From contig ONLQ01000003.1 of assembly GCA_900318665.1 (NCBI GenBank), positions 12,387 to 76,386 on the forward strand: a stretch of 64,000 bases of DNA, read 5' to 3'. The position numbers and the translations under genes are program-made. This document shows, in pieces, positions 1,839 through 34,563 of the stretch. How positions within the stretch are numbered: position 1 is the stretch's first letter; the number at the start of each line of letters is the position of its first letter. Source of the DNA: an uncultured Bacteroidales bacterium (GTDB lineage: Bacteria; Bacteroidota; Bacteroidia; Bacteroidales; P3). The notes beneath the pieces were generated by a model. The model was not told where the DNA came from, did not search any database, and saw only the letters and a program-made list of their open reading frames with translations.

Positions 1839-1846
1839 CATTTGCC

Positions 1847-8967: not shown

Positions 8968-8990
8968 AGACTATCGCTCTTTTGCGGACA

Positions 8991-9031: not shown

Positions 9032-9053
9032 ATGTCAGATAATGTCATTGTCC

Positions 9054-9942: not shown

Positions 9943-10073
9943 CAAATATTAACTTTATAAGAATAATGCGCGGTTTTATGTGGTTGATTCTGCGAGAAAA
10001 CACATCGGTCGGCAACTCTAACGCAGCACGATGGCAGTAAGCAGAGCTCCACTCCGCCTCCTGATAAAAAGAT

Positions 10074-11057: not shown

Positions 11058-11129
11058 TCCCTCCAGAACCATTCTACGAACCATACAGCGACAACAAATA
11101 TCATACTAACCATAAACAAACAAAACAAT

Positions 11130-11591: not shown

Positions 11592-11597
11592 AAAATC

Positions 11598-11632
11598 GGC
11601 GAGGCGATACAAGCCTCGCCATTTTTATTTTT
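11598..11632 (+). terminator. rho-independent terminator
   Basis: ggcgaggc / gcctcgcc is an 8-bp GC-rich stem with loop gatacaa, followed by atttttattttt. Confidence 0.7.
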
Positions 11633-11665
11633 CATCATTAATATAATTGACAGTATTTGCTACAA

Positions 11666-12490: not shown

Positions 12491-12529
12491 TCTTTCAAAA
12501 CCTCACTCTCAACTACCAAAACTATCACT

Positions 12530-13456
12530 ATGCAACTAAACCTAAAACGACCGCTCGTATTCTTCGACCTTGAAACCACCGGCCTGCAAGTAGGACACGA
12601 CCGCATTGTCGAAATGTGCTTCCTAAAGATAAACCCCGATGGCACAGAAGAGACACTAAACACCCGCGTGCGTCCTGCAGACGAACAAGGAAACACGATA
12701 CCCATTCCCAAAGAATCGACAGCAATACACGGCATTTCCGATGCCGACGTGGCCGACAAGCCCTCGTTCAAAGAACTTGCGCCTCGCGTAATACAGTTCA
12801 TAGGCGACGCCGACCTTGCTGGCTACAACTCCAACAAATTCGACGTGCCCATGCTTGTCGAAGAATTTCTTCGCGCCGGACAGCCGTTCGACATAAAGCA
12901 GCATCTCCGTATCGATGTGCAAAACATATTCCACAAAATGGAACAGCGCACACTGCGTGCAGCCCACAGGTTCTATTGTGGTAGAGACTTCGACAATGCC
13001 CATTCGGCCGACGCCGACACCTATGCCACCTACGAGGTGCTGAAGGCACAGTTAGACCGCTACAAGGACAGCGACTACGAGGTGAAAGAAGGCGTGGTGG
13101 AGAAAAATCCCGTGCGCAACGACGTCGAAGCCCTCAGCGTTTTCAGCACCATTGGCCGCAACGCCGACCTCGTGGGACACATTGTTTACGATGCCAACGG
13201 ACAGGAAACGTTTAACTTCGGAAAACACAAAGGACGCACACTCCAAGCGGTATTTACCGAAGAGCCTTCCTATGCCGACTGGATGACAAAGTCCGATTTT
13301 CCTCTCAGCACCAAAGCCGTTGTCAACGAGGTTTATGAGCGCGTGAGGAACAAGAAAAAACAGGAAAAGCAATTCCAACCCAAAAGAGAACCGCGGAAAG
13401 AAGCCAACGGCCAACTGCAAGAACAACTGCGACTGTTTAATCTGACCGATAAATAA
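12530..13456 (+). CDS. 3'-5' exonuclease, DnaQ/epsilon-like (DEDDh)
   Basis: 308 aa. ExoI VFFDLETTGL, ExoII GYNSNKFDVPML and ExoIII HSADADTYATYEV are present. Confidence 0.85.
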   Translation: MQLNLKRPLVFFDLETTGLQVGHDRIVEMCFLKINPDGTEETLNTRVRPADEQGNTIPIPKESTAIHGISDADVADKPSFKELAPRVIQFIGDADLAGYNSNKFDVPMLVEEFLRAGQPFDIKQHLRIDVQNIFHKMEQRTLRAAHRFYCGRDFDNAHSADADTYATYEVLKAQLDRYKDSDYEVKEGVVEKNPVRNDVEALSVFSTIGRNADLVGHIVYDANGQETFNFGKHKGRTLQAVFTEEPSYADWMTKSDFPLSTKAVVNEVYERVRNKKKQEKQFQPKREPRKEANGQLQEQLRLFNLTDK

Positions 13457-13495
13457 GCAATCAGCGGAAGGCATAACCAATACCATTAGTAAAAA

Positions 13496-15739
13496 ATGTC
13501 GTCGCTTCCACCGATTTTCCTCGACTTAGCAATAATCCTCATCACTGCAGGAGTTGTAACCATAGTATTCAAATGGCTCAAACAGCCATTGGTGCTTGGC
13601 TACATTGTTGCGGGATTTATAATCGGTCCCTATGTAACTTGGTTCCCTGCCGTTACCGACAAGGCCAACGTGCATGTGTGGAGCGATATCGGCATTGTTT
13701 TCCTAATGTTTGCCTTGGGTCTGGAGTTCAGCATCAAGAAACTGAAAAAGGTTGGAGCCACAGGCGCCATCACGGCGCTGACCGAACTGTGCATCATGTT
13801 CTTGATAGGCAGTTCGCTGGGCAAGATACTCGGCTTCCAGCAGATGGAATGTATATTCCTCGGCTGCATGCTCTCCATCTCCTCTACCACTATTATTATC
13901 AAGTCGTTTGACGACCTGAAACTCAAGCAGCAGAAATTCACCAACACCGTGACGGCTGTTCTTGTTGTGGAGGACCTCGTGGCGGTATTGCTTCTCGTGC
14001 TGCTCTCCACGCTCTCTGTCAGCCGAAGTTTCAACGGCGGCGAGTTGGTGATGAGCCTCTTCAAACTGCTGTTTTTCTTGGTCATCTGGTTCGTTTTCGG
14101 CATTTTTTTCATACCGACGTTCCTGCGCTGGATGCGTCGTTTCATGACTGAAGAGACCCTTTGCATAGTGGCCACGGGCCTCTGCTTCGGCATGGTGGTG
14201 CTGGCCTCTTACGCGGGTTTCTCTACCGCATTGGGCGCTTTCGTGATGGGCGCTATACTTGCCGAAACCATTGAAGCCGACACCATACACCGAATTATCA
14301 CCCCCATCAAAAACCTGTTTGGTGCCGTCTTTTTTGTCTCAGTCGGAATGCTGGTGAACCCAGAGGTCTTGGTCAAATACATTCTGCCCATTCTCGCCAT
14401 TGCTGCCACCATCGTAATATTCAAATCAACGGCTGCCACCATAGGCGTGCTACTTAGCGGCAAGCCACTCAAATCCGCAATCCAGAGCGGTTTCTGCTTC
14501 TGTCAGATAGGCGAGTTCTCATTCATCATCGCAGGCCTCGGACTCAGTTTCGGCGTCATTGGCGAGAACCTCTACCCCATCATCGTGTCGGTGTCTATCA
14601 TCACCACCTTTGTCACACCTTATATGATAAAGGCGGGTCTGCCTTTCTACGAATGGCTCAACCCACGGCTGCCCGAGAAACTGAAAACCGCCTTGGGCAA
14701 ATACTCCTCATCGGCAATCAACAGCGGCAAAGGCTCGATGGTTAACAAATTCATACGCCGTCAGTTGTTCTCCACGCTCATCTACGGCACCATTCTCGCC
14801 GTCATCTCGCTGCTATCTTTCACATTGCTGCAGCCCTTCCTGCTTCGCGCATTCAATACGGCAGGACTAAGCAGCAAGTGGGCCAACATCTTAGGCGCGA
14901 CAATAACGCTCACCGTAATGGCTCCATTCGTATGGGCCATGGTGCAGAATGTCAATTTCGACCGCGTGCGCAAGATGCTCCACGCCTATCACAACAGCCA
15001 GGTGGCGGTCATCCCTCTTGTCATTCTACGCATCTTTGTGGCCTTGTTTGCCGTGGGCGTAGTGCTGGCACGTTACATTCACCTGGCATTGGGTTTCGTG
15101 CTTGTGCTGACGATATTGGTGCTGATTTTCGTGCTGACATCGCGGCGTGCCACACGGGCATATCTGCGTTTAGAGGAACATTTTGTGTCCAACTTCAACC
15201 AGCGTCAGGCGCAAAACTCATTCCGTATTCCTCAGACAATGGAACAGGTGTTCAGCATGGAACGCCTACAACTCACATCGTTCTCCAATCTCATAGGGCA
15301 GACCCTGCGACAGAGTAATCTGCGTGCCAATTTCGGTCTGAGCGTGGTCTCTATCGAACGTGGCAACAACGTGATAAACCTGCCGGGAAGCGAAGAACTG
15401 CTGATGCCGCAGGACAAACTCACCGTGATTGGCACCGAGGAACAGATAGCCCGCTTACGCGTTGAGGCCGAGGTGGAGCCCGACATGCTGATACACGACC
15501 ATTCCGACAACGAGGTAAACATCTATCGCTATGTCATCATCAACGACGGCCCTCTGCACGGCAAAGACCTAATACATGCCGACCTGCGCAATCGCTTCAA
15601 CGGCATGGTGATAGCCATTGAACGCGATGGAGATTACATACTCAACCCGAAAGCCACCACGGTGTTTCAAGAAAACGACGTGGTTTGGTTCGTCTCTCCC
15701 GACGAGATAACCCTGAACCGTTTTGTGAAAGAAGGTTAG
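13496..15739 (+). CDS. cation:proton antiporter (CPA2-like) with two C-terminal RCK_C/TrkA-C domains
   Basis: 747 aa. About 12 TM helices are followed by two soluble repeats (L.G.TL....LR...G..V..IER). Confidence 0.8.
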   Translation: MSSLPPIFLDLAIILITAGVVTIVFKWLKQPLVLGYIVAGFIIGPYVTWFPAVTDKANVHVWSDIGIVFLMFALGLEFSIKKLKKVGATGAITALTELCIMFLIGSSLGKILGFQQMECIFLGCMLSISSTTIIIKSFDDLKLKQQKFTNTVTAVLVVEDLVAVLLLVLLSTLSVSRSFNGGELVMSLFKLLFFLVIWFVFGIFFIPTFLRWMRRFMTEETLCIVATGLCFGMVVLASYAGFSTALGAFVMGAILAETIEADTIHRIITPIKNLFGAVFFVSVGMLVNPEVLVKYILPILAIAATIVIFKSTAATIGVLLSGKPLKSAIQSGFCFCQIGEFSFIIAGLGLSFGVIGENLYPIIVSVSIITTFVTPYMIKAGLPFYEWLNPRLPEKLKTALGKYSSSAINSGKGSMVNKFIRRQLFSTLIYGTILAVISLLSFTLLQPFLLRAFNTAGLSSKWANILGATITLTVMAPFVWAMVQNVNFDRVRKMLHAYHNSQVAVIPLVILRIFVALFAVGVVLARYIHLALGFVLVLTILVLIFVLTSRRATRAYLRLEEHFVSNFNQRQAQNSFRIPQTMEQVFSMERLQLTSFSNLIGQTLRQSNLRANFGLSVVSIERGNNVINLPGSEELLMPQDKLTVIGTEEQIARLRVEAEVEPDMLIHDHSDNEVNIYRYVIINDGPLHGKDLIHADLRNRFNGMVIAIERDGDYILNPKATTVFQENDVVWFVSPDEITLNRFVKEG

Positions 15740-22006: not shown

Positions 22007-23998
22007 TTATTTCTTATCCGTTACAGGGTAAGAGATGCGGACGTGGTAGATACTCAGCATCTTGCTTTTCAGCATACTGCGGATAGACGAAATGTCGTGG
22101 AACGTTAGCGGGCACTGTCCCATCTGTCCCTGCTCTATCTTGCCGAGCACTATGCTGTCCACCAGTTTGTCTATATTCTCCTTGGTGGGCTCTTTCAGAC
22201 TCTTGCAAGCGGCCTCCACCGAGTCCACAATCATCACCACCGCCGTCTCGCGCGAATAAGGACGCGGACCAGGATAGCGGAACACCGAGTCGTCGAACTT
22301 CTCGTCTGGATGTGCCTCTTTGTATTTGGCATAGAAATAGCCCGTATAGGTTGTGCCGTGGTGAGTGCGGATAAAATCGCATATCTCGGCAGGCAGGTGA
22401 TATTTATGAGCCAAATCGATGCCGTCGTGCACATGCTGCGTTATGATACGCGCGCTTTCGGTGTAGGGCAACTCGCTGTGGGGGTTGTATCCAGAGTTCT
22501 GATTTTCGGTAAAATAGATAGGCGCGTTAATCTTGCCTATGTCGTGATAGAGGCCGCCGACCTTTGCCAGCAGTGCGTTGCCGCCAATCTCGTTGACAAG
22601 GTCCTCGCTGATGTTTGCCACCTGCATACAATGCTGGAAAGTGCCAGGGGCTTTGCGTGACAGTTCGCGCAGAGCGGGCGTGTTGGTATTGGCTATCTCC
22701 ATCAGCGTCAGATTGGTAGTAACGTGGAACACCTTCTCGTATATATATATGAGAGGGTAGGCCAGAAGGGTTAGCACGGCATTGAGGAAGAACACCACAT
22801 AGCGGTCGGGGCGAAGGTTGTGCAGGTGGGTGTCCTGCCACAGTATTCCGCAGGTGTAGATGAGCGAATAGGTCAGAAAGACAACGAGACACGCCACAAA
22901 GAACTGACTCCTGCGCTCAAACTCGCGAACGGTGATGATTGACATCATTCCGGCGGTGAGTTGATAGAAGATAAACTCAAAACTGTCGGGCACCATGTGA
23001 CCGAGTATCACAATGGTAGATATATGTACATAGAGAGCCGTGCGCATATCGAAAATGACGTGCATCAGTATAGGTCCGATACATAGCGGCACCACGAGCA
23101 CCCATGCCGGACGCACATGGATTACAAAGGCCGTCATGGCAGCCATCAGCACTATGGTTGTCAAAATCATAAGCACGCTGTGCATATCTTCCAGCAGGCC
23201 GTGATTGCTGATATTAAGGAACATGAATAGGGCCAAAAATGCAATGGCGCACAGCATGAAACGCCCGAAATAGTGGGCCACAGGATTGAACTGCTTGACA
23301 AAGCGCTTGTCGTTGTCGGCCTCGAGCGACGCTATAATGCGAGCCTTCTCGTCGGTAATATACTCGCCTTTCGACACTATCAGTTCGCCCGTAAGCACCG
23401 TCTGCGACGAATACTGCAACTGCGAAAGGCGCGAGTCGAGTTCCATCTGCGTGCGGTTGGCATCAAAACAGACGCTGGGAACCAGCACGCTGTCGCGCAG
23501 AAAAGCATTGGCAATGCTGGAAGGCTCAACAAACTCCGACGGCGAGTGTTCCGAACCTACATTTCCTTGCAAAATCACTATGGTGTGGTCGGCAATATCG
23601 GGATAGTCTGGCGACAGTTCTATATATCCGCGCTGATAAATGCTGTCCATGCTTTTGCGCATACGCTGCATCTCGACATACGACAAAGTCCGCCTATATT
23701 GCGCAAGGCGGCTCATTGCCGTGGCGTGCGCCGCACTGTCAATCTGATAGTAAAGCGTGCTTTGCGCCTTGGCCAAAGCCATCTCCTGGTTCAGTTCGCT
23801 CTCGCTCTTTATGATGGGGAAGTCGTGAGGCGCATAGAGGTCGTTGTCTTTCCAAAAACTCCCTGGCGAGTAGTCGTAATGCTCGCCTTGCTGTTTCTGC
23901 GGGAACATTATCATTATTACAACTATGGCAATGATAATGGCAAGAAACTTATTGATAAGTGGGAGCCGCCTTACGGCATTAGCGAAAAACTCTTTCAT
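22007..23998 (-). CDS. 7TM-receptor HDIG-domain phosphohydrolase (PgpH-like)
   Basis: 663 aa. An extracellular N-terminal domain is followed by 7 TM helices and the HD domain LYHDIGK...HHG. Confidence 0.85.
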   Translation of the reverse strand: MKEFFANAVRRLPLINKFLAIIIAIVVIMIMFPQKQQGEHYDYSPGSFWKDNDLYAPHDFPIIKSESELNQEMALAKAQSTLYYQIDSAAHATAMSRLAQYRRTLSYVEMQRMRKSMDSIYQRGYIELSPDYPDIADHTIVILQGNVGSEHSPSEFVEPSSIANAFLRDSVLVPSVCFDANRTQMELDSRLSQLQYSSQTVLTGELIVSKGEYITDEKARIIASLEADNDKRFVKQFNPVAHYFGRFMLCAIAFLALFMFLNISNHGLLEDMHSVLMILTTIVLMAAMTAFVIHVRPAWVLVVPLCIGPILMHVIFDMRTALYVHISTIVILGHMVPDSFEFIFYQLTAGMMSIITVREFERRSQFFVACLVVFLTYSLIYTCGILWQDTHLHNLRPDRYVVFFLNAVLTLLAYPLIYIYEKVFHVTTNLTLMEIANTNTPALRELSRKAPGTFQHCMQVANISEDLVNEIGGNALLAKVGGLYHDIGKINAPIYFTENQNSGYNPHSELPYTESARIITQHVHDGIDLAHKYHLPAEICDFIRTHHGTTYTGYFYAKYKEAHPDEKFDDSVFRYPGPRPYSRETAVVMIVDSVEAACKSLKEPTKENIDKLVDSIVLGKIEQGQMGQCPLTFHDISSIRSMLKSKMLSIYHVRISYPVTDKK

Positions 23999-24032
23999 GT
24001 GCAGGTCTATTCGTATTAAGCAATAAAGATTG

Positions 24033-24040
24033 CAAAGTTA
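24033..24040 (-). promoter_or_regulatory. -7 box (TAACTTTG on the minus strand) for the HD gene
   Basis: The complement of caaagtta, 35 nt upstream of the ATG at 23998. Confidence 0.45.
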
Positions 24041-24518
24041 CACAAAATCCAACAAATTCACACAACCAGACAAAAAACGACTTAATCCTCGAACAATATT
24101 CTTAATGGATTTTAGCATAACATTGTTCCCAAAAAACTTGTTCTGCTTTTTTTCAAAGACTTAATGATAACCGATAGAAAAGGCAATAATATACAAGTAA
24201 TCCAGTCATAAAAAAGGTCTTTCATGTTTTTTGATTAGTTTCTCAGAAAAAAAGTAAATTTGCAAACGCTTACGCGCACGATGTAAGACATACAAGAAAA
24301 GCATTGTTATTAAGTCCTTACTTGTAAATTCGGTTGAACTCCGTGAAGTATGCTCCATGTATAAACATAATGTTTTTTTATACCTTTAAAGGTTACAAAA
24401 AGTAAATCGATGAGAGGCACTTAAGTCTCATTTTTTTATAGATGACCCTGCCCGTGGGAGGTATGAAAATACAAAATGACTAACGGGAAGAGTGTCAAAG
24501 ACGAATAAAATAAGATTT

Positions 24519-25406
24519 ATGGAAAATATAAAAAACATAACAGACATCCTTTTCGCAAAGATTTCTGAACTAATAGATCAATCGCGAGGCTTCGTAGTTA
24601 ATGCTGTCAACGTGGCGGAGGTCAGAACTCGCTTTGAGGTGGGACGCTATATTTTTGAGGATGAGCAGCGGGGCGAACGTGCCACATACGGCCAACGGGT
24701 GTTGAAAAAACTCTCTGCCCGACTGATGGAACATTATGGCAACGATTGGAGTTATGATACACTTGTAAGATGTCGGAAATTCTATCAAGCATACGAACAT
24801 GCAGAAATTGTGGCAATGGCGTTGCCACAATTAGAAGAAACAACACAATCACCAGAAAGCAAGAAACTTACAAATTGGGGCAACGGTGTTGCCACAATTC
24901 AGATGCCCCGTTTCACACTCTCATGGTCGCACTACCTAATCTTGATGCGAATCGAGAATAAAGAAGCCCGCAGTTTCTATGAGATTGAGGCGACCCAGTA
25001 ACAGTGGTCTGTCAAACAACTGAAGCGTCAGGTGGGTAGCAGCCTCTATGAGCGATTGGCATTGAGCCGCGACAAAGACGAAGTGATGCGGCTGGCCAGG
25101 GAAGGGCAAACCGTCGAAAAGCCGTCCGACATCATCAAGAACCCCATCACGCTGGAGTTCCTTGGCCTCAAGCCCAATGCCGCCTATACAGAGTCGAGGT
25201 TGGAGAACGCCATCATTGGCCGCATGCAGCAGTTCCTGTTGGAACTGGGAAAAGGATTCCTGTTCGAGGCCCGACAGAAACGCTTCACCTTCGAGGAACG
25301 TAACTTCTATGTCGATTTGGTGTTTATGTTCCATGGATTTGATACGACAGAGCATGAGGATAATGACAAAGTACGCCAAAACAAAGCATACAGGTGCGCT
25401 GCCTGA
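24519..25406 (+). pseudogene. DUF1016 / YhcG-type PD-(D/E)XK nuclease, disrupted
   Basis: ORFs 24492-25001 and 25032-25406 are in the same frame and are separated only by a TAA at 24999-25001 (...YEIEATQ*QWSVKQLKRQVGSSLYERLALS...). Family similarity ends after FYVDLVF (~25326), and the E.K part of the nuclease motif is missing. Confidence 0.7.
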
Positions 25407-25473
25407 ATGGTGTAAGCCTTTTATCAATCTGTTCAGAATGCGTTGTAAAAAGTTTGAGAACGCACAATAAATC

Positions 25474-25530
25474 TCCTCACATCGCGTTATCAACCTGTAA
25501 TCACTAGGGATATTGTCGCCAATGTGAGGA
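25474..25530. repeat. 9-bp perfect inverted repeat (tcctcacat / atgtgagga) with a 39-nt spacer
   Basis: Read directly from the sequence. It lies in the gap between the DUF1016 remnant and the HU-like gene, 36 nt upstream of the ATG at 25566. Confidence 0.6.
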
Positions 25531-25565
25531 CAAATATACAGTAGAACACGCAATAATGGAATAAC

Positions 25566-26000
25566 ATGGCCTATTATCGTAAACGCAAATCAAGCCTCAC
25601 GGGTTTGTGGACGCCAGTCGCTGTTTCGACTCAGATGGTTGATGAAGAGTATCTGGCACGTCTTATCGGGCAACGCTCAACTGTACACGCTGCCGATATT
25701 GCTGCCGTCCTTACCGCTTTGCCTGAGGTTATAAGCGAGGCATTGGCTGATGGATTCAGCGTACAGTTGGGCAAACTTGGCTCATTCAATTTGGTCGTAG
25801 AATGTGAAAAGACGGGCGTGGCCACTTCTGCCGAGGTCTCGCCAAAGCAGATAACCAACGTCAAGGTTCAATTCCGTCCACCTCGCAAAATGCTCTGGAT
25901 GGGTGATGGGCGCAAGCGTCAGAACATGCTCCTCAATCGCCCGTACGAGTGGATTGAGTTGCCGCCCCGTCCAGGCAGCAAGGCGAGTGAGGAGGACTAA
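25566..26000 (+). CDS. HU-family (Bacteroidales HU-HIG type) DNA-binding protein
   Basis: 144 aa. The pattern ...LIGQRSTVHAADIAAVLTALPEVISEALADGFSVQLGKLGSF.L... is an HU-fold core, followed by a basic, proline-rich tail. Confidence 0.65.
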   Translation: MAYYRKRKSSLTGLWTPVAVSTQMVDEEYLARLIGQRSTVHAADIAAVLTALPEVISEALADGFSVQLGKLGSFNLVVECEKTGVATSAEVSPKQITNVKVQFRPPRKMLWMGDGRKRQNMLLNRPYEWIELPPRPGSKASEED

Positions 26001-26013
26001 AAAATAAAACGAC

Positions 26014-27090
26014 ATGAACACTCTGCCACAATCAAGAACGCTACCCATAGAACCGCTGACGCGCATCTTCAAGAACACGTCCGCGACGTATAAGTTCTAT
26101 TGGTTTATGGGCATCCTAGACCTATATGTCAAGAAGGACATGAAACGGATGAGCATTTGGGACCTTATGGTTGAGATGACTGCCAATGCTTGGTATCCAG
26201 TTAGCTATTTCCGGCTTTCGTTTGGCAAAAGCGACTCGCTGCGCGATGCTATTATCTCGCTGCAAGAGGTGAACAACCTTCCGATGAATATTAACCCTAA
26301 CGAGTTACGCCGTTGGCTGCACAACCACAAGAACGACACGATGGTGCGTCGCACGCTCGATTTCCTGCCCAAGAATGTGCCCTATTGGTTCCTGCGTCCG
26401 TGGATTGATGTGGCCGACACCAAAGAGATAATGCATCGTTCGCAGTCGTTGGAAAACAGCTGTCTCTACAAACTGACCAAAGAGGATGACACCATCTGGG
26501 TCGAACTGAACAGCAGGTGGTTGACCTACCTCAAAGAGAACTACGTCATTCTAAAAGACTTCGCCTATTGGAATCTCTCGTCGTTCCTGCAAGTACGTAA
26601 TCCCAATGTGCCTAACATTGCCACCAAGTTAGTGAAAGTGGAGAGTCGGCAAGCATTGACCAAACAGCGTAACCTGTGGGACTTCGTACTTGAACACTCA
26701 CAGCCGATGAACTGCATCTACACTGGCAATACGTTGGAAGTCGGCAATTACGACCTTGATCATTTTATCCCGTGGAGCTTCGTGTCGCACAACCTTTTGT
26801 GGAACCTTATCCCTGCCGACAGCAGTATCAACTCGTCAAAAAGCGACCGACTGCCAGACCTCGACCGCTATCTGCTACCTTACGCACAAACCCACCAAAT
26901 GGCCGTTCGCACATGCATTGAGGGCAACTATCGGAACAAGGAACTGCTCGATGATTACATATCGCTCGGCTGTACACCGCAGGAACTATCGCAAATGAGC
27001 AAAACAAACCTTGTGAACTGCTTCAAGCGAACCTTCGTACCAATGAGCCAGATTGCACAAAACATGGGATTTGAAGTATGGAGAAACTAA
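26014..27090 (+). CDS. HNH endonuclease with a ~235-aa uncharacterised N-terminal region
   Basis: 358 aa. The C-terminal CIYTGNTLEVGNYDLDHFIPWSFVSHNLLWNLIPADSSINSSKSDRLP is an HNH (beta-beta-alpha-Me) motif. I cannot assign the N-terminus (FKNTSATYKFYWFMGILDL...). Confidence 0.8.
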   Translation: MNTLPQSRTLPIEPLTRIFKNTSATYKFYWFMGILDLYVKKDMKRMSIWDLMVEMTANAWYPVSYFRLSFGKSDSLRDAIISLQEVNNLPMNINPNELRRWLHNHKNDTMVRRTLDFLPKNVPYWFLRPWIDVADTKEIMHRSQSLENSCLYKLTKEDDTIWVELNSRWLTYLKENYVILKDFAYWNLSSFLQVRNPNVPNIATKLVKVESRQALTKQRNLWDFVLEHSQPMNCIYTGNTLEVGNYDLDHFIPWSFVSHNLLWNLIPADSSINSSKSDRLPDLDRYLLPYAQTHQMAVRTCIEGNYRNKELLDDYISLGCTPQELSQMSKTNLVNCFKRTFVPMSQIAQNMGFEVWRN

Positions 27091-27959
27091 CGCACATAGA
27101 ACCCGAGAAGATAAACCGTCCATATCTGACGGCCATCAAGCGGACAGACCTTTCTGTGCCCACACGATACCTTATGCAACACGGATTGTTGAGAGGTAAG
27201 ATATTGGATTTTGGATGCGGTTTCGGTTTTGATACTGATGAACTATGTAGGCAGGGGTACAATGTCATTGGCTATGACTATTATTATCGCCCAGATTTCC
27301 CCATTGGAAAGTTTGATACCATTTTGTGTAACTATGTGTTGAATGTCCTTGAACCCTATGCACAAGCAGAGGTGTTGATGAATGTTGCTAATTTGCTATC
27401 GCCCAAAGGTACTGCTTTTTTTGCCGTGCGTAGAGATTTGACAGAAGAAGGTTTTCGGCTTCACGCCATCCACAAGCAATACACCTACCAATGCAACGTC
27501 ATACTTCCTTATAAAAGCATAGTTTCCAACGCAAGCTACGAACTATATCAATATAATCACTTCAACAAACTGCCTCGTGTTGAAGGCGAGAAATGTCCAT
27601 TCTGCAAACTCTCACGCCGCGTTGAAATAATATGTGAGACTACAACCTGTGTGGCTTTCTACGATGGTTACCCTGTTTCTCCCGGACATGCGCTCATAAT
27701 ACCCAAAAGACATGTCGCATCATATCGAGACCTAAGTCGTCAAGAGCGTTATGATATGGATGAAATAAGGGAATATGTGATGCGTAAGATAGATGAACGA
27801 TTTCAACCAGATGGTTACAATGTCGGAATTAATATCAACAAAGCGGCCGGCCAATCCGTTTTCCATTGTCACATGCACATTATTCCTAGATATAAAGGTG
27901 ATGTACCCAACCCCAAGGGCGGTGTACGTGGCGTTATTCCTCAAAAACAGAAATATTAA
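27078..27959 (+). CDS. fusion protein: class I SAM-dependent methyltransferase domain + HIT (histidine triad) domain
   Basis: 293 aa. ILDFGCGFGFD is SAM motif I, followed by GYD and ILCNYVLNVLEP. The C-terminal KCPFCKL...YDGYPVSPGHALIIPKRHV...HCHMHIIPR contains HxHxHxx. The ATG overlaps the HNH stop region by 13 nt. Confidence 0.8.
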   Translation: MEKLTHIEPEKINRPYLTAIKRTDLSVPTRYLMQHGLLRGKILDFGCGFGFDTDELCRQGYNVIGYDYYYRPDFPIGKFDTILCNYVLNVLEPYAQAEVLMNVANLLSPKGTAFFAVRRDLTEEGFRLHAIHKQYTYQCNVILPYKSIVSNASYELYQYNHFNKLPRVEGEKCPFCKLSRRVEIICETTTCVAFYDGYPVSPGHALIIPKRHVASYRDLSRQERYDMDEIREYVMRKIDERFQPDGYNVGININKAAGQSVFHCHMHIIPRYKGDVPNPKGGVRGVIPQKQKY

Positions 27960-28038
27960 TATTTACAACAATATGGATCCAGAATACGAAAACATAACAA
28001 TCATCTTAAGCATTGAGAAACATAAATAATAAAATAGA

Positions 28039-29106
28039 ATGGAGAAAAAATATTTAAAACATAGTTTAAGTAAATTGACGGATTCCGAATACAAAGAGGC
28101 TGTTCTTAGCGCCAGTAGTATCTTGGATACGGATGATGGAGAAGACTGGTGCAAGCTGATTCTTAGAATTGCAGACGAGATAAAAAGAAGAAACGGGCTG
28201 GAAGAAGCCATAAAATACCTTGATGCCAGACGATCCGATTATGAAAGAGTGTTCAGTAATTTATTTGACAAAAGTGCTGAGATACTCAAGAAGACTTGTT
28301 ATTTCAATCTGGAAAACAACACAATTCATTCTTATGATAAAGCAAAAGAAAATATAGTTAGATATATATATAATGCTCTTGCCCAGATAGATTACAAGGC
28401 CACATATGATAAAATGCCTTACTACAGTTTTAGGTGCTTTTCGGAATACTCTTTAAACGATGTAAAGAACCAGAAATTAACCCTATCACATCCTCGTGAG
28501 TTTAATGACCCTTTGGATACTTTACTTGTTTGGTGGATGGTATCTGAAATCGAGAGCCCTGGTAGTTCTGACATTAACAAGAAATACACTCTCTTGTTGA
28601 AGAAAGTGTCTGAAAGTATTAAAATACGGTGTTTAGTCGCAGGTAAGAAAGGCAAAGAAACCATTCCAGTGGAAGATCTTTCAAGCCTTATGTGGGCACA
28701 CTATGCAAACAGTCATAAAGGTTTTTGTGTAGAATATGAGTTTGATAGATCTTTTACCTCTAGAGACCCATCTAAAGGCAATATTGTCTTGCTAAATGGA
28801 ATCAACTATACTAGCAAACTTGAAACACATGGCGAACCTTCCATCAAAGAAGCTCTGTTTAACAAAGGAGAGTTTTGGAATTACGAAAATGAGGTTAGAT
28901 TGGTAATGTTTAATGCAGAAATAGAAGAAGATTTCCCGTCACTATCTTGCGAAGGAAGAATTAAAGCCATATATTTGGGGGTTAAGTGTACAGATGAAAA
29001 TAGAAGAAAGATGGAAAGAGCTATTGGCCATAAGGATATACCCTTGTACCAAATGAAAATTGATGAGAACAATCTTATGCATTTTAAAAAACAACAAATA
29101 GGATAA
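28039..29106 (+). CDS. DUF2971 domain protein with an N-terminal helical extension
   Basis: 355 aa. LSHPREFNDPLD, LMWAHYANSHKGFCVEYEF, FWNYENEVRLV and IKAIYLGVKC follow the conserved DUF2971 order. The sequence is very AT-rich. Confidence 0.75.
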   Translation: MEKKYLKHSLSKLTDSEYKEAVLSASSILDTDDGEDWCKLILRIADEIKRRNGLEEAIKYLDARRSDYERVFSNLFDKSAEILKKTCYFNLENNTIHSYDKAKENIVRYIYNALAQIDYKATYDKMPYYSFRCFSEYSLNDVKNQKLTLSHPREFNDPLDTLLVWWMVSEIESPGSSDINKKYTLLLKKVSESIKIRCLVAGKKGKETIPVEDLSSLMWAHYANSHKGFCVEYEFDRSFTSRDPSKGNIVLLNGINYTSKLETHGEPSIKEALFNKGEFWNYENEVRLVMFNAEIEEDFPSLSCEGRIKAIYLGVKCTDENRRKMERAIGHKDIPLYQMKIDENNLMHFKKQQIG

Positions 29107-29110
29107 TACC

Positions 29111-31378
29111 ATGAATACTAATAGAATAACACAAGAAGAATTATTATCTTCTGTAATTCAATTCGAGAAGAATAAGAACAATGCAGAATTTGTCAGTCGA
29201 TTGCATGACGACAACTATTTATACAAATTCAAAGGTTCAAGAAAAGAGAAGATAGTTATTGTCATGCTAGATTCTCTGGATTTCATTGACCGGATGATTC
29301 ACCAACTGGAAATAGCCAAAGATTATATAGTTATTAATACGAACTATACTGATATCATTGAAGTGTTTACTACAGCCATCCTTCCTGAGTCTAAGATATC
29401 GGAACTGGAGAAGCCATTAGCGACAGAAGACCTGTCTCTTTCAGTTAATGATCTGATAAGTATAGAAGAGCGAAATGAATTCGCTTCATTGTTTATAACG
29501 GAGAACATGAGTATGAGTGAATCCGAAATTGCCCCTGCGGTTTATGACTATCTTGCTATGAGCAATGAATCATCCGATATTAAGAACCTATTTTTCTATG
29601 CTTTACTGCTAATGGATATATATCGACATCAACCGGTTGAAGAAAGATCTTTTATCGATGATAGTAGTAAAAAATATAATAAGAGTGAGTTGGAGATACA
29701 GCGTGCTATTAAAAAGATGAGAAGTGATGGAAAAATAACTCCATTACAAAAAGGTAATGTATTCAGTTTGAGTGATAGTGAGCAACGCGCTATCGATAAA
29801 TCGATAAAAGACTCCCGTGCTACGGAGCAGCAATTCCTTATGAAATATAATGAGATTTTGGACAAATATCAGGTGTCTTGGGGTGAGGATATTCTTGAAA
29901 AACTAAAGAACGAGTATCTTCTAAAATATAATGGATTGTATGGTGACGAACAAACAAATGGAACAGATAAGAATGGAGATAATACTAGTTTTGAACAATT
30001 CCTGACCGAAAAATTAGGAAACATTTCGCAAACATTTCTTGAGGAACTATATGGGTTGTGTGACAATACGGACTACCTTGATCAATATGCTCTAAATCAA
30101 TCATTTTTCAACCTTTTTTGTTCTCCAAAGTATGAAGAATATTTGAGTAAAAAAAATATTTATATTTACCTTGACACTCCTGTGATTTCAAATTACATTT
30201 GTTCGAAGAGCGAATATCCAAATGATTACAATTTAGAATTAAATAATCCAGACTATCAGAACGCTTTGGATCTCTTTGGTTATCAGGAAGAGAATGATGA
30301 CAAAATAAGTTTTGTTGTCCCTCATGATTATCTCCTGGAAACAGTCGGTGAATTAAAAAAAGCCTTACAGCTATCTTGGTTCGACCAAATACAGGATGCC
30401 CCGATAAAAATGCAAACATCCAATGTTTTCTACAATTTTTATTGTTCAATTAGGGATGAAAAGAAGATTCGCGAGGAAGATATTTCTGGATTTAGTTTTG
30501 AACAATTTGTCAAAACATTAGGTTTTGGAGAAGTCAATCCAGATGCAAATACTTTTATGAAGAAAAACGTCACTAATATGAGGTATTTCCTTAAAAAAAT
30601 GGGAGTTGAAACACTAGATATTGTGGACGGTTATTTTGATGGCTTTGATAAGGTGAAAGTTAGTTATGAATGGGAGTTACAGGAAAGAGGTCGAGACAAA
30701 ACTAATCTTGCTATTAATGCCGATGTTCGTCAGGCTTTTTATATTACAAAAGAAGCCCTTGAAAATGGTTTAGAGAATACTGAATATTATCTGGTAAGTT
30801 GGGATAACACGTTGTTCAAACTACGCGACATTGTCAAAGATGAATTGGAAATAGCTGGACGCACTTATGGGATATATAAACCAGGAGAATTGGCAGACAA
30901 ACTTGCTTTTCGTAATTTTCGGATTAGTAAGGAGAACGTGAAAAGCGAAGTTTTTGCTTATGCAAACAATAGTTTCAATATGAGTGATAAAATCCGAAGC
31001 CTTTTTGATAACGTGTTAACCCCGTATTTTGCATCGTCTAAAAACAAAAACAGTAAACTCGTTTCCTCTCTGTTGACAATGGAACATTCCCAAATTGATG
31101 GTGGGGTAGAAAAAGAAACGTCTTCAAGAAGTGACAAGACTATGTTTGAAGAAACATTTATCTCAATTGTCATGTCTTTGCCAAAGTATAATTGTACAAA
31201 ACAAAATCTGCGTGATTTCTTGGTTGATGAGAAAAATAATGATTTCATTATCACTACTTTTAAAGAAGCATTCCAGGAAAAAGGGGCGGGCAAGAGCATT
31301 GACATTGCAGACAGATTCTGCAAAGAAATAAAAGACTATGTAAATGTAGTGACTGATGATATTAAATTGTCATTGTGA
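29111..31378 (+). CDS. large hypothetical protein (755 aa), possible PIN-like core in the middle
   Basis: A long uninterrupted ORF 4 nt after the DUF2971 stop, with the same low G+C. I see no Walker A, HEPN or HNH motif. For the acidic-residue pattern, see the finding at 30152-30835. Confidence 0.75.
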   Translation: MNTNRITQEELLSSVIQFEKNKNNAEFVSRLHDDNYLYKFKGSRKEKIVIVMLDSLDFIDRMIHQLEIAKDYIVINTNYTDIIEVFTTAILPESKISELEKPLATEDLSLSVNDLISIEERNEFASLFITENMSMSESEIAPAVYDYLAMSNESSDIKNLFFYALLLMDIYRHQPVEERSFIDDSSKKYNKSELEIQRAIKKMRSDGKITPLQKGNVFSLSDSEQRAIDKSIKDSRATEQQFLMKYNEILDKYQVSWGEDILEKLKNEYLLKYNGLYGDEQTNGTDKNGDNTSFEQFLTEKLGNISQTFLEELYGLCDNTDYLDQYALNQSFFNLFCSPKYEEYLSKKNIYIYLDTPVISNYICSKSEYPNDYNLELNNPDYQNALDLFGYQEENDDKISFVVPHDYLLETVGELKKALQLSWFDQIQDAPIKMQTSNVFYNFYCSIRDEKKIREEDISGFSFEQFVKTLGFGEVNPDANTFMKKNVTNMRYFLKKMGVETLDIVDGYFDGFDKVKVSYEWELQERGRDKTNLAINADVRQAFYITKEALENGLENTEYYLVSWDNTLFKLRDIVKDELEIAGRTYGIYKPGELADKLAFRNFRISKENVKSEVFAYANNSFNMSDKIRSLFDNVLTPYFASSKNKNSKLVSSLLTMEHSQIDGGVEKETSSRSDKTMFEETFISIVMSLPKYNCTKQNLRDFLVDEKNNDFIITTFKEAFQEKGAGKSIDIADRFCKEIKDYVNVVTDDIKLSL

Positions 31379-31520
31379 ACATGTATCATGCCGGGGACAC
31401 AGGGACAGGCACCTGTCCCACACCCGCGAGAGCAAGGGGATAAGTGAAACTGAAGATAAATGATAAAAAATGCGGATGAATGATGTGTAACATTTCCGTT
31501 TTTTGGACATTATTAGAGAT

Positions 31521-31554
31521 TTCCCCACCCCGCCACCAGAACAGATGAGAAATG
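31521..31554 (+). repeat. repeat segment A, copy 1 (ttccccaccccgccaccagaacagatgagaaatg)
   Basis: Near-identical to 33120-33153. In copy 2 it is contiguous with segment B, whereas here it lies ~330 nt away. Confidence 0.8.
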
Positions 31555-31690
31555 TGTAACATAAAGAATTGAAAATTGGGAGTTCCGGGAGTCGAGCGCA
31601 AAGCCAAACTTGCTTGAGCTCTGCCGAGATGCAGGAGCGTTGACGAAGTCAAAATTGAAATTGATGACTGATGGAATATTGACTAAACCA

Positions 31691-31712
31691 CTCTGCACTG
31701 AAAGTGCAGAGG
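31691..31712 (+). repeat. GAAA-tetraloop hairpin, copy 1 (ctctgcact-gaaa-agtgcagag)
   Basis: A 9-bp perfect stem followed by gtttta. The core ctgcactgaaagtgcag is repeated at 31841-31858. Confidence 0.7.
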
Positions 31713-31840
31713 TTTTATAAATGATGCGGAATGAAATTCCTTATTATCTACAAACAAACTTACGAAAAAAACAAACCGAAACATAAACTTAAAATCAAAC
31801 CCCAAGTAACACTATAGACGTTTTTAGAAACTAAAAGTTG

Positions 31841-31858
31841 CTGCACTGAAAGTGCAGG
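31841..31858 (+). repeat. GAAA-tetraloop hairpin, copy 2 (ctgcact-gaaa-agtgcag)
   Basis: The same 17-nt core as copy 1, in direct orientation 150 nt downstream. Confidence 0.7.
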
Positions 31859-31880
31859 GATTTAACCGTAAAATATTAAA

Positions 31881-32038
31881 AAATGAAAATTGAGAATTGA
31901 AAAAAAACATCAGCTGACGCTCTGCAAACCGGTGATTCGGAATATGTAAGACTTGTCTCACTAATTCCAGGTGTGTGTTAAAAGGCAACAGAGGAAAATA
32001 GGCCACTATAACAGGTGAAAAAAGAAAAGTGAGAATAC
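31881..32038 (+). repeat. repeat segment B, copy 1 (~150-nt module upstream of rhuM)
   Basis: aaatgaaaattgagaattgaaaaaaa..catc.gctga.gct.tgcaaacc...gacttgtctcact.att.caggtgtgt... aligns by eye at roughly 85% identity with 33148-33287. Confidence 0.75.
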
Positions 32039-32069
32039 AAAAAAATCTGAGTATAATAATATATTGAGT

Positions 32070-33086
32070 ATGAATAAAAATACAAGCATACAATTGGCAT
32101 CGAATGACGAAATGCTGATTTACCAGTCGGAAGATGGGACTATCAAGGTGGATGTGCTGTTTCAAGACGAGACCGTCTGGTTGACAATCGACAATATGTG
32201 TATGCTGTTCGGGAAGGCCCGCTCAACAATCAATGAACATATTCTGAATGTCTTCAGTGAAGGAGAACTGGAAGAATCGAAGAGTGTGAGAAAAATCGGT
32301 ATTTCCGATTTTTCCACCAAACCTACTAATTTCTACAATCTTGACGTCATCATTTCAGTAGGCTATCGCGTGAAGTCGCACCAAGGTACTTTGTTCCGTA
32401 TCTGGGCCACACAACGTCTGCACGAATATATCATCAAGGGTGTGGCGTTGAACGACGAGCGTTTCAAGAAGGGCAACTCGATGAACTACTTCAAGGAATT
32501 GCTGGAACGCATCCGTGAGATACGCCTGTCGGAACGGGTCTTCTACCAACAGATTAAAGACATCTACAAGACCAGTATTGACTATGACCCTGCTGACGAG
32601 ATGACGCTGCAGTTCTTCAAAGAGGTGCAGAACAAACTGTTGTGGGCCGTAAGCGGGCAGACAGCTGCAGAACTGATATACTACCGGGCCAACGCCTCGT
32701 TGCCAATGATGGGCCTGACCTCAACGGAAAATACCGGCAAGGTGCTGAAATCGGACGTGAGTATAGGAAAAAACTATCTGAATGAGGACGAGATGAAGGT
32801 CTTGAAACTCATCGTCGAACAGTTTCTGGCCTTTGCCGAAGCCCAAGCCGCGTCCCACACCCCTATGTATATGCGTGACTGGATGGAATATTTGAAGATG
32901 GTGCTCACGATGAACCGCAAGTCTATCCTAGCCGATGCCGGACGAATCTCGCACCATATGGCCATTGAAAAAGCCGAATCGGAGTACGACAAATACAAGA
33001 ATACCCAACGCCAGATAGAGCATCTGGAAAGCATCAAGGAACTGGAAGCCGACATCTATCGATTGAAGAAAGATAATGAATCTTGA
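32070..33086 (+). CDS. rhuM: RhuM family (Virulence_RhuM) protein
   Basis: LIYQSEDGTIKVDVLFQDETVWLTIDNMCMLFGKARSTINEHILNVF...YNLDVIISVGYRVKSHQGTLFRIWATQRL is a strong RhuM signature. I chose the ATG at 32070 over the TTG at 32064. Confidence 0.85.
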   Translation: MNKNTSIQLASNDEMLIYQSEDGTIKVDVLFQDETVWLTIDNMCMLFGKARSTINEHILNVFSEGELEESKSVRKIGISDFSTKPTNFYNLDVIISVGYRVKSHQGTLFRIWATQRLHEYIIKGVALNDERFKKGNSMNYFKELLERIREIRLSERVFYQQIKDIYKTSIDYDPADEMTLQFFKEVQNKLLWAVSGQTAAELIYYRANASLPMMGLTSTENTGKVLKSDVSIGKNYLNEDEMKVLKLIVEQFLAFAEAQAASHTPMYMRDWMEYLKMVLTMNRKSILADAGRISHHMAIEKAESEYDKYKNTQRQIEHLESIKELEADIYRLKKDNES

Positions 33087-33119
33087 CAATGGATGCATAA
33101 CACATGTTGTTCCCCACCC

Positions 33120-33287
33120 CGCCACCAGAACAGGTGAAAAATGAAAATTGAGAATTGAAAAAAAGCATCGACTGATGCTTTGCAAACCGACGATTTAGAA
33201 TAGGTACGACTTGTCTCACTGATTTCAGGTGTGTAAAAAAAGCAAGAGGGGAAAGTGGGCCACCAGAATATGTGAGGAATATAACTT
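33120..33287 (+). repeat. repeat segments A+B, copy 2 (contiguous)
   Basis: It starts 34 nt after the rhuM stop and ends at a TAACTTTG box (33282-33289) that precedes the DUF1016 stub. Confidence 0.75.
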
Positions 33288-33303
33288 TGCAAAATATACT
33301 AAC

Positions 33304-33423
33304 ATGAAAGTGCGAAATAATATTCAGCCATCTAATATCTCAAGTTTCATTGCGGATATCAAGCAAATTGTCAATACTGGCAAAATGTCAGCCTCTTCGG
33401 CAGTGAATGCGACGGGTTTATAA
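33304..33423 (+). pseudogene. 39-codon N-terminal stub of a second DUF1016/YhcG-type gene
   Basis: MKVRNNIQPSNISSFIADIKQIVNTGKMSASSAVNATGL* resembles the N-terminus of the gene at 24519 (ITDILFAKISELIDQSRGFVVNAVN). It then stops, and a -7 box lies 15 nt upstream. Confidence 0.45.
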
Positions 33424-33474
33424 TTCTTCCGTGTCTTTACATATTTTCATGAAATTTCATGTACTTTTGCAGTC

Positions 33475-34563
33475 GTGAAAAACACTATTGAGAAACGTAT
33501 TATTGGGTTGATGTCGGGGACTTCGCTTGATGGTCTTGACATTGCTTATTGTCTTTTGCGTTGCGATGAGGAGTTTCGGTATGTCGATTTTGAACTTTTG
33601 GCTGCTGAGACTATTCCCTACCCTGACTCATGGACTAAACGCCTTGCTGGGCTTGTCGATGCCTCAGCCTACGAATATGCGCTGACAGACGTTGAATTAG
33701 GGCATTATATGGGACGCTGCGTTAGAGATTTCCGGCAGCGTCACGAAGGGGCTGTCGATGCCATCGCTTCACACGGCCATACCATCTTTCACCAACCTCA
33801 TCTGAGACTTACCACGCAGATAGGCGATGGCAACGCCATTGCTGCCGAAACAGGCTTGCCCGTGGTCTATAACTTCCGCCAACTGGACGTGGCTCTTGGC
33901 GGCCAGGGCGCACCGCTTGTGCCAATAGGCGACAAACTGCTGTTCGGACAATACGACGGATGCCTTAACCTTGGCGGTTTCAGCAACATTTCTTACGAAA
34001 TCGAAAAACAGCGCATTGCCTACGATGTGTCGCCTTGCAACATGGCGCTGAACTACTTGGCAAATCTAAATCATGTTGTTTTTGACATTGATGGCATGAT
34101 GGCGCGCCAAGGCAAACTAAACGACACTCTTCTTCAACGCTTTAACAGTCTCGACTACTACGGCAAACCGCTACCCAAAAGTCTCGGCAAAGAATGGTTT
34201 GACAGCAAGTTCCGTTCGCTTTTAGACACAAATGACGATTCTACCGAAACCGTAAACAGCCACCTGCGCACCGTGGTAGAGCACATTGCGCAACAAGTAG
34301 GCTTGGCAGTTAAAAACGCAGACTTGCATAGTCTGCTGGTTACTGGCGGTGGGGCAAAGAATGGTTTTCTAATAGAACGCATCAAAGTCTATTCGACACA
34401 ATGCGAGATAGTTGTCCCCAAAAGCGAGATAATAGACTACAAGGAGGCCATAATCTTTGCGCTTTTAGGATTCCTGCGTCTTTACGGAAAGGCCAACTGC
34501 CTACGAAGCGTAACAGGCGCCAGCACTGACAACTGCGGCGGCTGCATTGCAGGGCTTGTCTAA
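33475..34563 (+). CDS. anmK: anhydro-N-acetylmuramic acid kinase
   Basis: 362 aa with a GTG start. IGLMSGTSLDGLDIA, NFRQLDVALGGQGAPLVP and LVTGGGAKN are present. Confidence 0.9.
   Translation: MKNTIEKRIIGLMSGTSLDGLDIAYCLLRCDEEFRYVDFELLAAETIPYPDSWTKRLAGLVDASAYEYALTDVELGHYMGRCVRDFRQRHEGAVDAIASHGHTIFHQPHLRLTTQIGDGNAIAAETGLPVVYNFRQLDVALGGQGAPLVPIGDKLLFGQYDGCLNLGGFSNISYEIEKQRIAYDVSPCNMALNYLANLNHVVFDIDGMMARQGKLNDTLLQRFNSLDYYGKPLPKSLGKEWFDSKFRSLLDTNDDSTETVNSHLRTVVEHIAQQVGLAVKNADLHSLLVTGGGAKNGFLIERIKVYSTQCEIVVPKSEIIDYKEAIIFALLGFLRLYGKANCLRSVTGASTDNCGGCIAGLV

Follow-up and report, generated by a model that had tools for sequence, protein, structure and literature searches.

Variable defence islands lodged between conserved genes have been described for the pangenomes of Escherichia coli and Pseudomonas aeruginosa, and genes for RhuM and DUF1016 (YhcG) proteins are accessory passengers of restriction-modification (R-M) and defence islands. 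We know of no description of the interval between a gene for a PgpH-like HD protein and anmK as a hot spot of this kind. This interval was analysed in a 64,000-nucleotide stretch of DNA (the window) from an uncultured Bacteroidales bacterium (assembly GCA_900318665.1, contig ONLQ01000003.1, positions 12,387 to 76,386), in which the two genes are separated by an island of 9,371 bp (24090-33460, + strand), hereafter called island A. With a probability of roughly three in four, the region is a mosaic accessory island that is not mobile by itself, sits at an intergenic hot spot of an uncultured rumen Bacteroidales lineage, exchanges its cargo by recombination, and carries live cargo of the conflict type. 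Part of this cargo is a gene encoding a DUF2971 protein of 355 amino acids (aa), followed by a gene for a 755-aa partner. DUF2971 is the domain of Aristaios, a single-gene anti-phage protein of 316 aa encoded on a lactococcal plasmid, which was shown experimentally to block Skunavirus and is reported to interfere with phage transcription (PMC11381338, PMC13064643). The domain has also been classed by remote homology as a DarT/AbiGi-like ADP-ribosyltransferase (ART) in which a Tyr and an ExE motif are conserved (PMC12522546).

The intergenic site is a hot spot with at least three states: empty, occupied by island A, or occupied by a different island, called island B. Its left core flank is the PgpH-like 7TM-HD gene (22007-23998, - strand; 663 aa; Pfam 7TM-7TMR_HD, E 3e-27, and HD, E 1e-14), and its right core flank is anmK, coding for the anhydro-N-acetylmuramic acid kinase AnmK (33475-34563, + strand; Pfam AnmK, E 4e-69). 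The comparison set was comprised of public-assembly contigs that encode exactly the same HD protein, which was present on 16 contigs; all sequences compared are metagenome assemblies. The flanks of the retrieved contigs are 96-99.5% identical to the window, and these contigs therefore belong to the same species, in which the neighbours of the identical HD protein vary between the three states. In five contigs (L005, L006, L007, L009 and L010) the HD gene abuts anmK across a spacer of 117-153 bp. By blastn and sequence comparison, the alignment of these empty sites to the window breaks exactly after position 24089 and resumes at 33461, with 12 bp (TACAGAAAAAAC) standing where the window has the 9,371 bp of the island. 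The right junction corresponds to promoter-proximal sequence of anmK (GTACTTTTGCAG), which is retained in the empty sites. The window itself is 100% identical to ENA ERZ28614905 scaffold_292, and island A recurs in the independent assembly ERZ1029110 with 99.985% identity over 20.4 kb.

Island B is found beside the HD gene in L002 (GCA_017453775.1) and L003, and includes the counterpart of a DUF1016 relic of island A. Its cargo comprises SspB (E 2e-89), SspC (1201 bits), an intact 375-aa DUF1016 protein, fragments of SspD, a DUF262/NsnA-like protein, a Ser/Thr kinase and an SNF2 helicase. In the region 1-9426 of both contigs the DUF1016 gene is lodged between sspC and sspD, followed by the DUF262/NsnA-like, kinase and helicase genes; sspD is split in L003 and was not called in L002. 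The original prediction, made from the letters of the window, had proposed a mosaic island of about 9.5 kb at a hot spot between these two genes and had suggested a search for an empty site in relatives. The comparison bears this out: the insertion is strain-specific with exact boundaries at 24090 and 33460, the HD gene abuts anmK in the five conspecific contigs, and L002 and L003 have Ssp cargo there. A single gene set throughout, which would have spoken against this reading, is not what the conspecific contigs hold; three states are seen among them, and the site is therefore regarded as a hot spot.

The two islands have their first 244 bp in common (24090-24333). This AT-rich left end of island A has a GC content of 0.30 and contains no open reading frame (ORF) of at least 60 aa. 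The HD gene end together with the shared segment (23000-24333) shows 97% identity (blastn) to L002 and L003, with 94% over 24000-24333, and the similarity of island A to their left end stops at 24333. RhuM is probable as a second common part, located in the right portion of both islands: the members of its cluster at 90% identity or more lie on contigs exactly as long as the two island-B contigs, which is an indirect clue. A look-up with a small Cpn10-like neighbour, aimed at the right end of island B, returned just island-A and short contigs. Within the shared 244 bp, reading by eye revealed a minus-strand ORF of 37 codons (24115-24225; MKDLFYDWITCILLPFLSVIIKSLKKSRTSFLGTMLC), whose start echoes that of the HD gene, the 16-mer at 24212-24227 being 88% identical to 23985-24000; it may encode a small membrane peptide or be a relic of a duplicated gene start. 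One metagenomic contig (L008) that is 100% identical to the window ends at 24196, 107 bp into the island, and a branch of the assembly graph caused by co-existing strains with differing island states would explain this break. As for synteny across genera, a contig scan of the species collection with AnmK gave relatives of no more than 63% identity (the nearest 61-63%) with a different gene order, none of them having the HD gene or alaS nearby, and was uninformative on the age of the site.

The composition of the island sets it apart from the core, with a GC content of 0.405 vs 0.522 and tetranucleotide distances up to 15.9 standard deviations (sd) above the rest of the window. In a sliding profile GC is 0.49-0.58 in the flanks, 0.30-0.39 at 23.75-24.75 kb, 0.43-0.51 at 24.5-27.25 kb and 0.32-0.37 at 27.75-31.25 kb, and the core level is regained only beyond 33.5 kb. 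By gene, GC is 0.425 for a fusion of a methyltransferase and a HIT domain (MT-HIT), 0.353 for the DUF2971 gene and 0.340 for the 755-aa gene. The GC content at third codon positions (GC3) is host-like for the DUF1016b, HU-like, HNH and RhuM genes (0.57-0.74), lower for MT-HIT and DUF1016a (0.41-0.45), and lowest for the AT-rich DUF2971 and 755-aa pair (0.34 and 0.32, respectively, vs 0.52-0.67 in the flanking genes). The stepwise composition noticed in the first reading is evident from these gene-by-gene steps; the surroundings had been put at 55-60% G+C, which is too high, the flanks measuring 49-58% with a core mean of 52%. All genes of the first reading were recovered at their places on the + strand by Pfam and PADLOC. 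Its view that at least two separate acquisitions took place is probably an underestimate: the HNH-MT-HIT genes and the DUF2971-755-aa genes differ in composition and are discrete units elsewhere, the same cargo being found at other loci, where a search for it had been suggested, the former in L095-L098 and the latter in L099/L100 and L101.

The island carries no visible means of moving itself, again in line with the original prediction. Pfam and NCBIfam scans of the island ORFs detected no integrase or transposase domain, nor any domain typical of conjugation or of phage-structural proteins, and a repeat search combined with the empty-site comparison detected neither a target duplication nor terminal direct repeats at the island ends. 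The only tRNA gene of the whole window, a tRNA-Ser at 48532, lies outside the 15 kb on either side of the island, in which there is none; it is also the sole tRNA/Rfam match of the window, and at gathering thresholds Rfam has no match in the island.

The most distinctive component of island A is the AT-rich two-gene cassette at 28020-31469 (+ strand; GC 0.347; tetranucleotide z up to 15.9), composed of the DUF2971 gene (28039-29106, + strand; Pfam PF11185, 27.1 bits with a cutoff of 22; PADLOC PDC-S31, E 1e-32) and the gene of the 755-aa partner (29111-31378, + strand), which has no Pfam match. By blastn the cassette is 88% identical at the nucleotide level to L099/L100 and 86.5% identical to L101, where it occupies other chromosomal sites. 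In L099/L100 the gene order is a truncated DUF1016_N gene, DUF2971, a 754-aa gene and two RhuM genes, situated between a glycoside hydrolase gene and acetyltransferase/RecQ genes, and in L101 the cassette is placed after an AAA_21 plus DUF4276 pair. The aligned stretch opens about 18 nt ahead of the first ATG and closes 15-90 nt past the second stop; these limits hug the ORFs, and the travelling unit is therefore just the DUF2971 and 755-aa genes. Irrespective of the flanking DNA, its GC content stays near 0.34 in each host context.

The 755-aa protein has 16 word-sharing relatives among 5.8 billion proteins and 242 relatives among 1.84 billion representatives at 50% identity, almost all of them 740-830 aa long. 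A phage origin of the pair was considered and rejected, as the 755-aa family has no relative in IMG/VR. In 19 of 19 loci, with partner identities down to 27%, the gene immediately upstream, in the same orientation, is a DUF2971 gene encoding 300-365 aa; this adjacency holds for all eight contexts obtained by protein look-up (the window, L011, L012, L013, L099, L101, L102 and L104) and for all 11 JGI loci having enough upstream DNA, where the check was made on stop-to-stop ORFs. The gap between both genes measures 4-10 nt in the called contexts. One distant partner homologue (L131, 26% identity) has no adjoining DUF2971 gene, and about 2 kb upstream of it lies a bona fide Mrr_N plus Mrr_cat gene. 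The genes next to the pair are time and again those of defence (KwaB, AAA_15 plus RloB, two TIR_2, RVT_1, SLFN_AlbA_2, and AAA_21 plus DUF4276), and include an HD-CE/HATPase protein.

The DUF2971 protein of the window retains H221, Y222, Y257, E283 and E285, all invariant in 58 homologues, with E283 and E285 forming the ExE motif according to the Tyr/ExE definition of PMC12522546. Its AF2 model (pLDDT 95, pTM 0.91) displays an extra N-terminal helical domain resembling TPR repeats. The structural model of the partner is of moderate quality (pLDDT 74.6, pTM 0.47). An alignment of 109 partner sequences shows E410, N438, D538, D565 and P591 to be invariant and D355, T356, Y407 and W564 nearly so, all within a central beta-alpha domain, and the profile built from these sequences matches the viral winged-helix protein 1tbx (E 0.0027, residues ~160-225). 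As leads only, Foldseek gave high-probability but non-significant matches of the partner N-domain to RPB5 and to restriction-endonuclease folds, as well as weak matches of the partner to FEN/Exo1/XRN; the presence of a PIN-like nuclease in this protein would be speculation. Weak Mrr_cat matches were obtained for 11 of 58 distant members of the family, and a DGxxDGGxD...QxTvQK motif is visible in their alignment. No macrodomain, NADAR or other known antitoxin domain was found in the partner by Pfam, NCBIfam and PDB-sequence searches.

We tentatively propose, at somewhat less than even odds, that the DUF2971 gene and its neighbour of about 750 aa form a previously undescribed two-component anti-phage system, made of an Aristaios/DarT-like enzyme of the ART type and an obligate large partner. 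In this joint reading the partner would combine a winged helix with a degenerate Mrr-like domain and with a conserved domain that is rich in D/E and possibly PIN/FEN-like, and the pair would spread between the defence islands of Bacteroidales as a tight cassette of two ORFs. The chance that such a pair works by abortive infection comes close to even; DUF2971 would then be the effector, and the partner would bind nucleic acid to sense infection, restrain the enzyme or act as a second effector.

The second cassette with a record outside island A encodes an HNH_4 protein of 358 aa (26014-27090, + strand; Pfam) and the MT-HIT fusion of 293 aa (27078-27959, + strand; Pfam Methyltransf_23 plus HIT, a class-I methyltransferase with a HIT domain at E 2e-24), whose ORFs overlap by 13 nt. 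This unit (25997-27940) is 76% identical at the nucleotide level over 1,950 bp to L095-L098, where the pair has the same 13-nt overlap and lies in a different island; the MT-HIT proteins are 92% identical. In L095, a rumen island (6239-15657), the order of genes is Fic, RhuM, a truncated DUF1016_N, HNH, MT-HIT (396 aa), a 397-aa protein, Fic and SLFN_AlbA_2. The 397-aa protein shows a weak match to the CAP12/Pycsar TIR domain (E 2e-4, below the cutoff), and may be a third partner of the pair in that island.

The HNH protein of the window has an intact Cas9-type HNH_4 motif DH..N..N (DLDH...N...N), preceded by an N-terminal region of 230 aa. The N-terminus of the methyltransferase matches the dnd/phosphorothioation-associated family TIGR04096 (E 1e-17, below the curated cutoff), and the domain otherwise matches class I families of the small-molecule type; no Pfam family of DNA methyltransferases is matched by the MT-HIT protein. 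PADLOC detects a ThsC-type HIT domain in it (E 1e-9). MT-HIT proteins are very common in Bacteroidales, with more than 3,000 matches and identities of 75-95% among the 120 best matches listed. Truncation of MT-HIT by the AT-rich insertion was considered and rejected, because forms of 293 aa are common (P0018, P0025 and P0029, the last having 507 members) and the C-terminal extension is variable. The pairing of HNH with MT-HIT is real but not universal, and no defence role is assigned to it.

Upstream of this unit, a gene for an HU-HIG family DNA-binding protein of 144 aa (25566-26000, + strand; Pfam HU-HIG, E 3e-20; NCBIfam HU_rel, 69.6 bits with a cutoff of 68.6) has its own upstream DNA and lies outside the segment in common with L095. 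It follows a pseudogene of a DUF1016/YhcG nuclease of the PD-(D/E)xK type (24519-25324, + strand), which is 86% identical in amino acids to codons 8-273 of the 375-aa DUF1016 gene of L002. DUF1016_N (24492-25001, + strand; Pfam/PADLOC) ends in an in-frame TAA at 24999-25001, where CAG has become TAA, and a YhcG_C fragment (25032-25406, + strand) continues beyond it in the same frame. The homology stops at 25324, at codon 273 of 375 within the YVDLVF strand, and the second, (D/E)xK half of the nuclease domain is therefore lost. Direct descent of island A from island B by deletion of sspBC is not supported: nothing in L002 matches 24334-24528, and nucleotide identity between the DUF1016 alleles (window 24529-25324) reaches only 84.5%. 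The region encoding the DUF1016 N-terminus contains two near-perfect palindromes of 27 nt, AATTGTGGCAATGGCGTTGCCACAATT (24806-24832) and AATTGGGGCAACGGTGTTGCCACAATT (24873-24899), which are 67 nt apart; their 15-nt core recurs reverse-complemented in anmK (33828-33842).

At the opposite end of the island, an ORF of 39 codons (33304-33423, + strand) probably represents what is left of the 5' end of a second DUF1016 gene. The ORF had been recognised as such in the original prediction and is indeed present; its DUF1016 identity is suggested by faint matches, namely to PADLOC PDC-S02 (E 0.0014) and, with blastp-short, to the DUF1016 N-termini of L095 and L099 (E ~0.02). Four independent DUF1016 genes at cassette junctions are truncated at the 3' side: the relic (codon 273) and the stub (~39) of the window, and those of L095 (142 aa; 8480-8908) and L099 (218 aa; 8160-8816). 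They keep their 5' parts and are always co-oriented with the downstream genes, and the sole intact copy seen is the one inside the ssp operon of L002. This suggests that DUF1016 paralogues are preferred recombination breakpoints; DUF1016 may be either a recurrent breakpoint or a promoter donor.

The RhuM family protein of 340 aa (32064-33086, + strand) is apparently intact, matching Pfam Virulence_RhuM (E 4.5e-98, profile positions 18-250 of 252) and PADLOC PDC-S05 (E 3e-128, positions 4-330 of 336). It is preceded by a repeat-rich non-coding spacer of 685 bp (31379-32063, + strand; repeat families D1-D5 and D8) and bracketed by two leader copies of about 180 bp. Copy A (31521-31554 and 31879-32045) is split by an insert of 324 bp (31555-31878); copy B (33110-33290, + strand) is uninterrupted, runs into the 39-codon ORF, and is identical to copy A for 85% over 106 nt and 94% over 34 nt. 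The insert contains two 34-nt repeats with a perfect hairpin (CTGCACTGAAAGTGCAG, at 31693 and 31841), and a terminator-like hairpin is located at 31691-31711; both motifs of this region are found nowhere else in the window, with 0 expected by chance. This insert, which has no match in Rfam, could be a small insertion element, a terminator pair or a small RNA. In each leader copy there is a hairpin together with two GCCACYAKAAYAKGTGA-like boxes spaced by about 138 bp, and immediately ahead of the following ORF stands a TAnnTTTG-type box, which we take to be of the promoter type of Bacteroidetes. The leader motif GCCACCAGAACAGGTGA/CCCCACCCCGCC was considered as a widespread recombination site, and rejected: it was found in this island and, loosely, once in L101.

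Island A would thus have been built from separate cassettes: a dead DUF1016 relic of the kind found in island B, the HU-like gene, the HNH plus MT-HIT pair, a recently acquired AT-rich pair of DUF2971 and 755-aa genes, and RhuM with its duplicated leader and a DUF1016 5' stub. Its cargo would be swapped by recombination rather than by an integrase of its own, via the conserved core flanks, the ends that the islands share, and the DUF1016 and RhuM sequences that keep recurring. Allelic exchange by homologous recombination fits the data because 12 bp are replaced by 9.4 kb, the left end is shared between islands A and B, and RhuM is probably shared as well. Smaller swaps of cassettes inside the island may follow such an exchange across the flanks, with DUF1016 and RhuM paralogues serving as anchors, so that 3'-truncated DUF1016 genes would mark the cassette junctions. 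The live cargo would serve in conflict with phages or other mobile DNA, the leading proposal being that DUF2971 acts as an Aristaios-like effector of the ART type and that its obligate partner binds nucleic acid and senses infection, or is a second effector.

Other histories of the region can be imagined. It might be the decayed remnant of a single integrative and conjugative element, integrative and mobilizable element or prophage that entered site-specifically and later lost its integrase, which would suit the co-orientation of all genes and the left end of 244 bp conserved in both island types; HU-HIG genes, moreover, are common on Bacteroidales mobile elements. Such an origin is nevertheless very improbable given that there is no integrase, transposase, tra or phage gene, no direct repeat or target duplication and no tRNA within 15 kb, that 12 bp of the empty site are replaced and not duplicated, and that the parts display three compositions and occur separately in other genomes, the DUF2971-755-aa pair being without relatives in IMG/VR. 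It is also quite improbable that the island is ancestral at the site and the empty strains are the result of deletions, without any hot spot of gain. The empty site does not look like a clean pre-insertion site, its 12 bp being unique to it; yet two unrelated cargos occupy the site, and the AT-rich cassette, which lies up to 16 sd off the host tetranucleotides and has 86-88% identical copies in other genomes, is therefore a recent import and not ancestry. Since loss and gain can coexist at a hot spot, this alternative excludes the exchange of cargo only in part. Finally, all sources are metagenome assemblies and L008 ends inside the left end of the island, as a chimeric contig produced by assembly or binning might, but assemblies made independently from different samples (ERZ28614905 and ERZ1029110) agree with each other and with NCBI records in junctions and cargo, and contigs of 56-96 kb run across both junctions, leaving an artefact next to no chance.

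The part of the preferred reading that concerns a mosaic island serving conflict has to be weighed against several observations. PADLOC found no complete validated defence system in island A; it scored candidate families only, PDC-S02 (the pseudogene), PDC-S05 and PDC-S31, together with isolated HNH and HIT domain matches, and the defence association originally suggested is plausible to the extent that these families are candidates. Recombination as the means of exchange is something we infer. MT-HIT is also found alone beside ordinary housekeeping genes in another genus, and need not be a defence gene. The ART fold was not recovered by Foldseek from the DUF2971 model, and the ART assignment therefore rests on the published remote homology and on motif conservation; no ART family of Pfam is matched by this protein even at E <=1, and the DarT family is matched neither by HMMER nor by Foldseek. 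The 755-aa protein has no Foldseek match at E <=0.001 (PDB, BFVD) and no family match, and the Mrr-type motif (~residues 30-60) is deleted or replaced in the DUF2971-linked subfamily, including the protein of the window, which suggests that an active nuclease domain became a non-catalytic module there. Rather than protective, the live cargo could be selfish or addictive (a toxin-antitoxin (TA)-like DUF2971 pair, a homing-type HNH) or have an ordinary cellular role (MT-HIT in nucleotide metabolism). The movement of the pair as a tight two-ORF unit, the likening of DUF2971 to DarT toxins (PMC12522546) and the solitary MT-HIT genes point that way. We consider this rather unlikely, as the partner has no macrodomain or known antitoxin domain and known defence genes recur beside the pair; TA function and defence by abortive infection, besides, are not mutually exclusive.

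Read as a mosaic island at a core-genome hot spot, the region is overall a textbook variable island, and its possible newness is confined to the DUF2971 pair. It presents a clean three-state defence hot spot in an uncultured rumen Bacteroidales lineage, organisms for which pangenome-level turnover of defence is hardly described, and illustrates how an island can be rebuilt cassette by cassette without a recombinase of its own. The two-gene unit is scored by current tools merely as the single-gene candidate PDC-S31, and the partner family, of about 240 clusters at 50% identity, is without annotation or structural relative. Should the pair prove to be a genuine defence system, it would represent a new partner architecture for immunity based on ADP-ribosyltransferases, with a directly testable size of 3.4 kb.

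The remainder of the window fits the picture of core surroundings that was drawn at the outset. Genes sampled outside the island are housekeeping genes, encoding DAHP synthase, an S41 peptidase, YajC, AlaS, GltX, a lipid A acyltransferase, FtsH, CdsA and Psd. Amid housekeeping genes, an ORF of 153 aa (11130-11591) belongs to the 23S_rRNA_IVP four-helix-bundle family (E 2e-11) and sits in a stretch of mildly deviating tetranucleotide usage (the windows that start at 8.5 and 9.5 kb).

When compared with described systems, island A qualifies neither as an integrative element nor as an Ssp or DarTG system, the defining features of each having been looked for and found lacking. Like DarTG, the DUF2971 pair is a two-gene unit, and DUF2971 is reported to be similar in sequence to the DNA ADP-ribosyltransferase DarT (PMC12522546); unlike in DarTG, the partner does not belong to the macrodomain proteins, and neither a macro nor a NADAR domain was detected. 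With Aristaios and PDC-S31 the protein of the window has in common the DUF2971 domain and the conserved Y and ExE residues. It departs from Aristaios, a single protein of 316 aa, in its extra TPR-like helical N-domain and in the always adjacent partner of about 750 aa, which removes the single-gene character. The SspABCD-type system is located at this very chromosomal site in L002 and L003 and holds the intact counterpart of the DUF1016 pseudogene of the window, whereas the window has no sspB, sspC or sspD (PADLOC), and shares with island B just the left end of 244 bp and the DUF1016 relic. The intact RhuM (PDC-S05) and the two DUF1016 remnants (PDC-S02) among nuclease genes follow the passenger pattern of these families, with the differences that no R-M system was recognised and that the DUF1016 copies are dead and located at cassette junctions in four independent cases. 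From the defence hot spots described so far the locus differs in its host, an uncultured rumen Bacteroidales, in its mostly candidate or unknown cargo and in having one pseudogene component. It resembles core-genome defence hot spots in the absence of an integrase, in its foreign composition, in its nuclease and defence-type cargo, and in a fixed intergenic site that is empty, occupied by island A or occupied by island B within one species.

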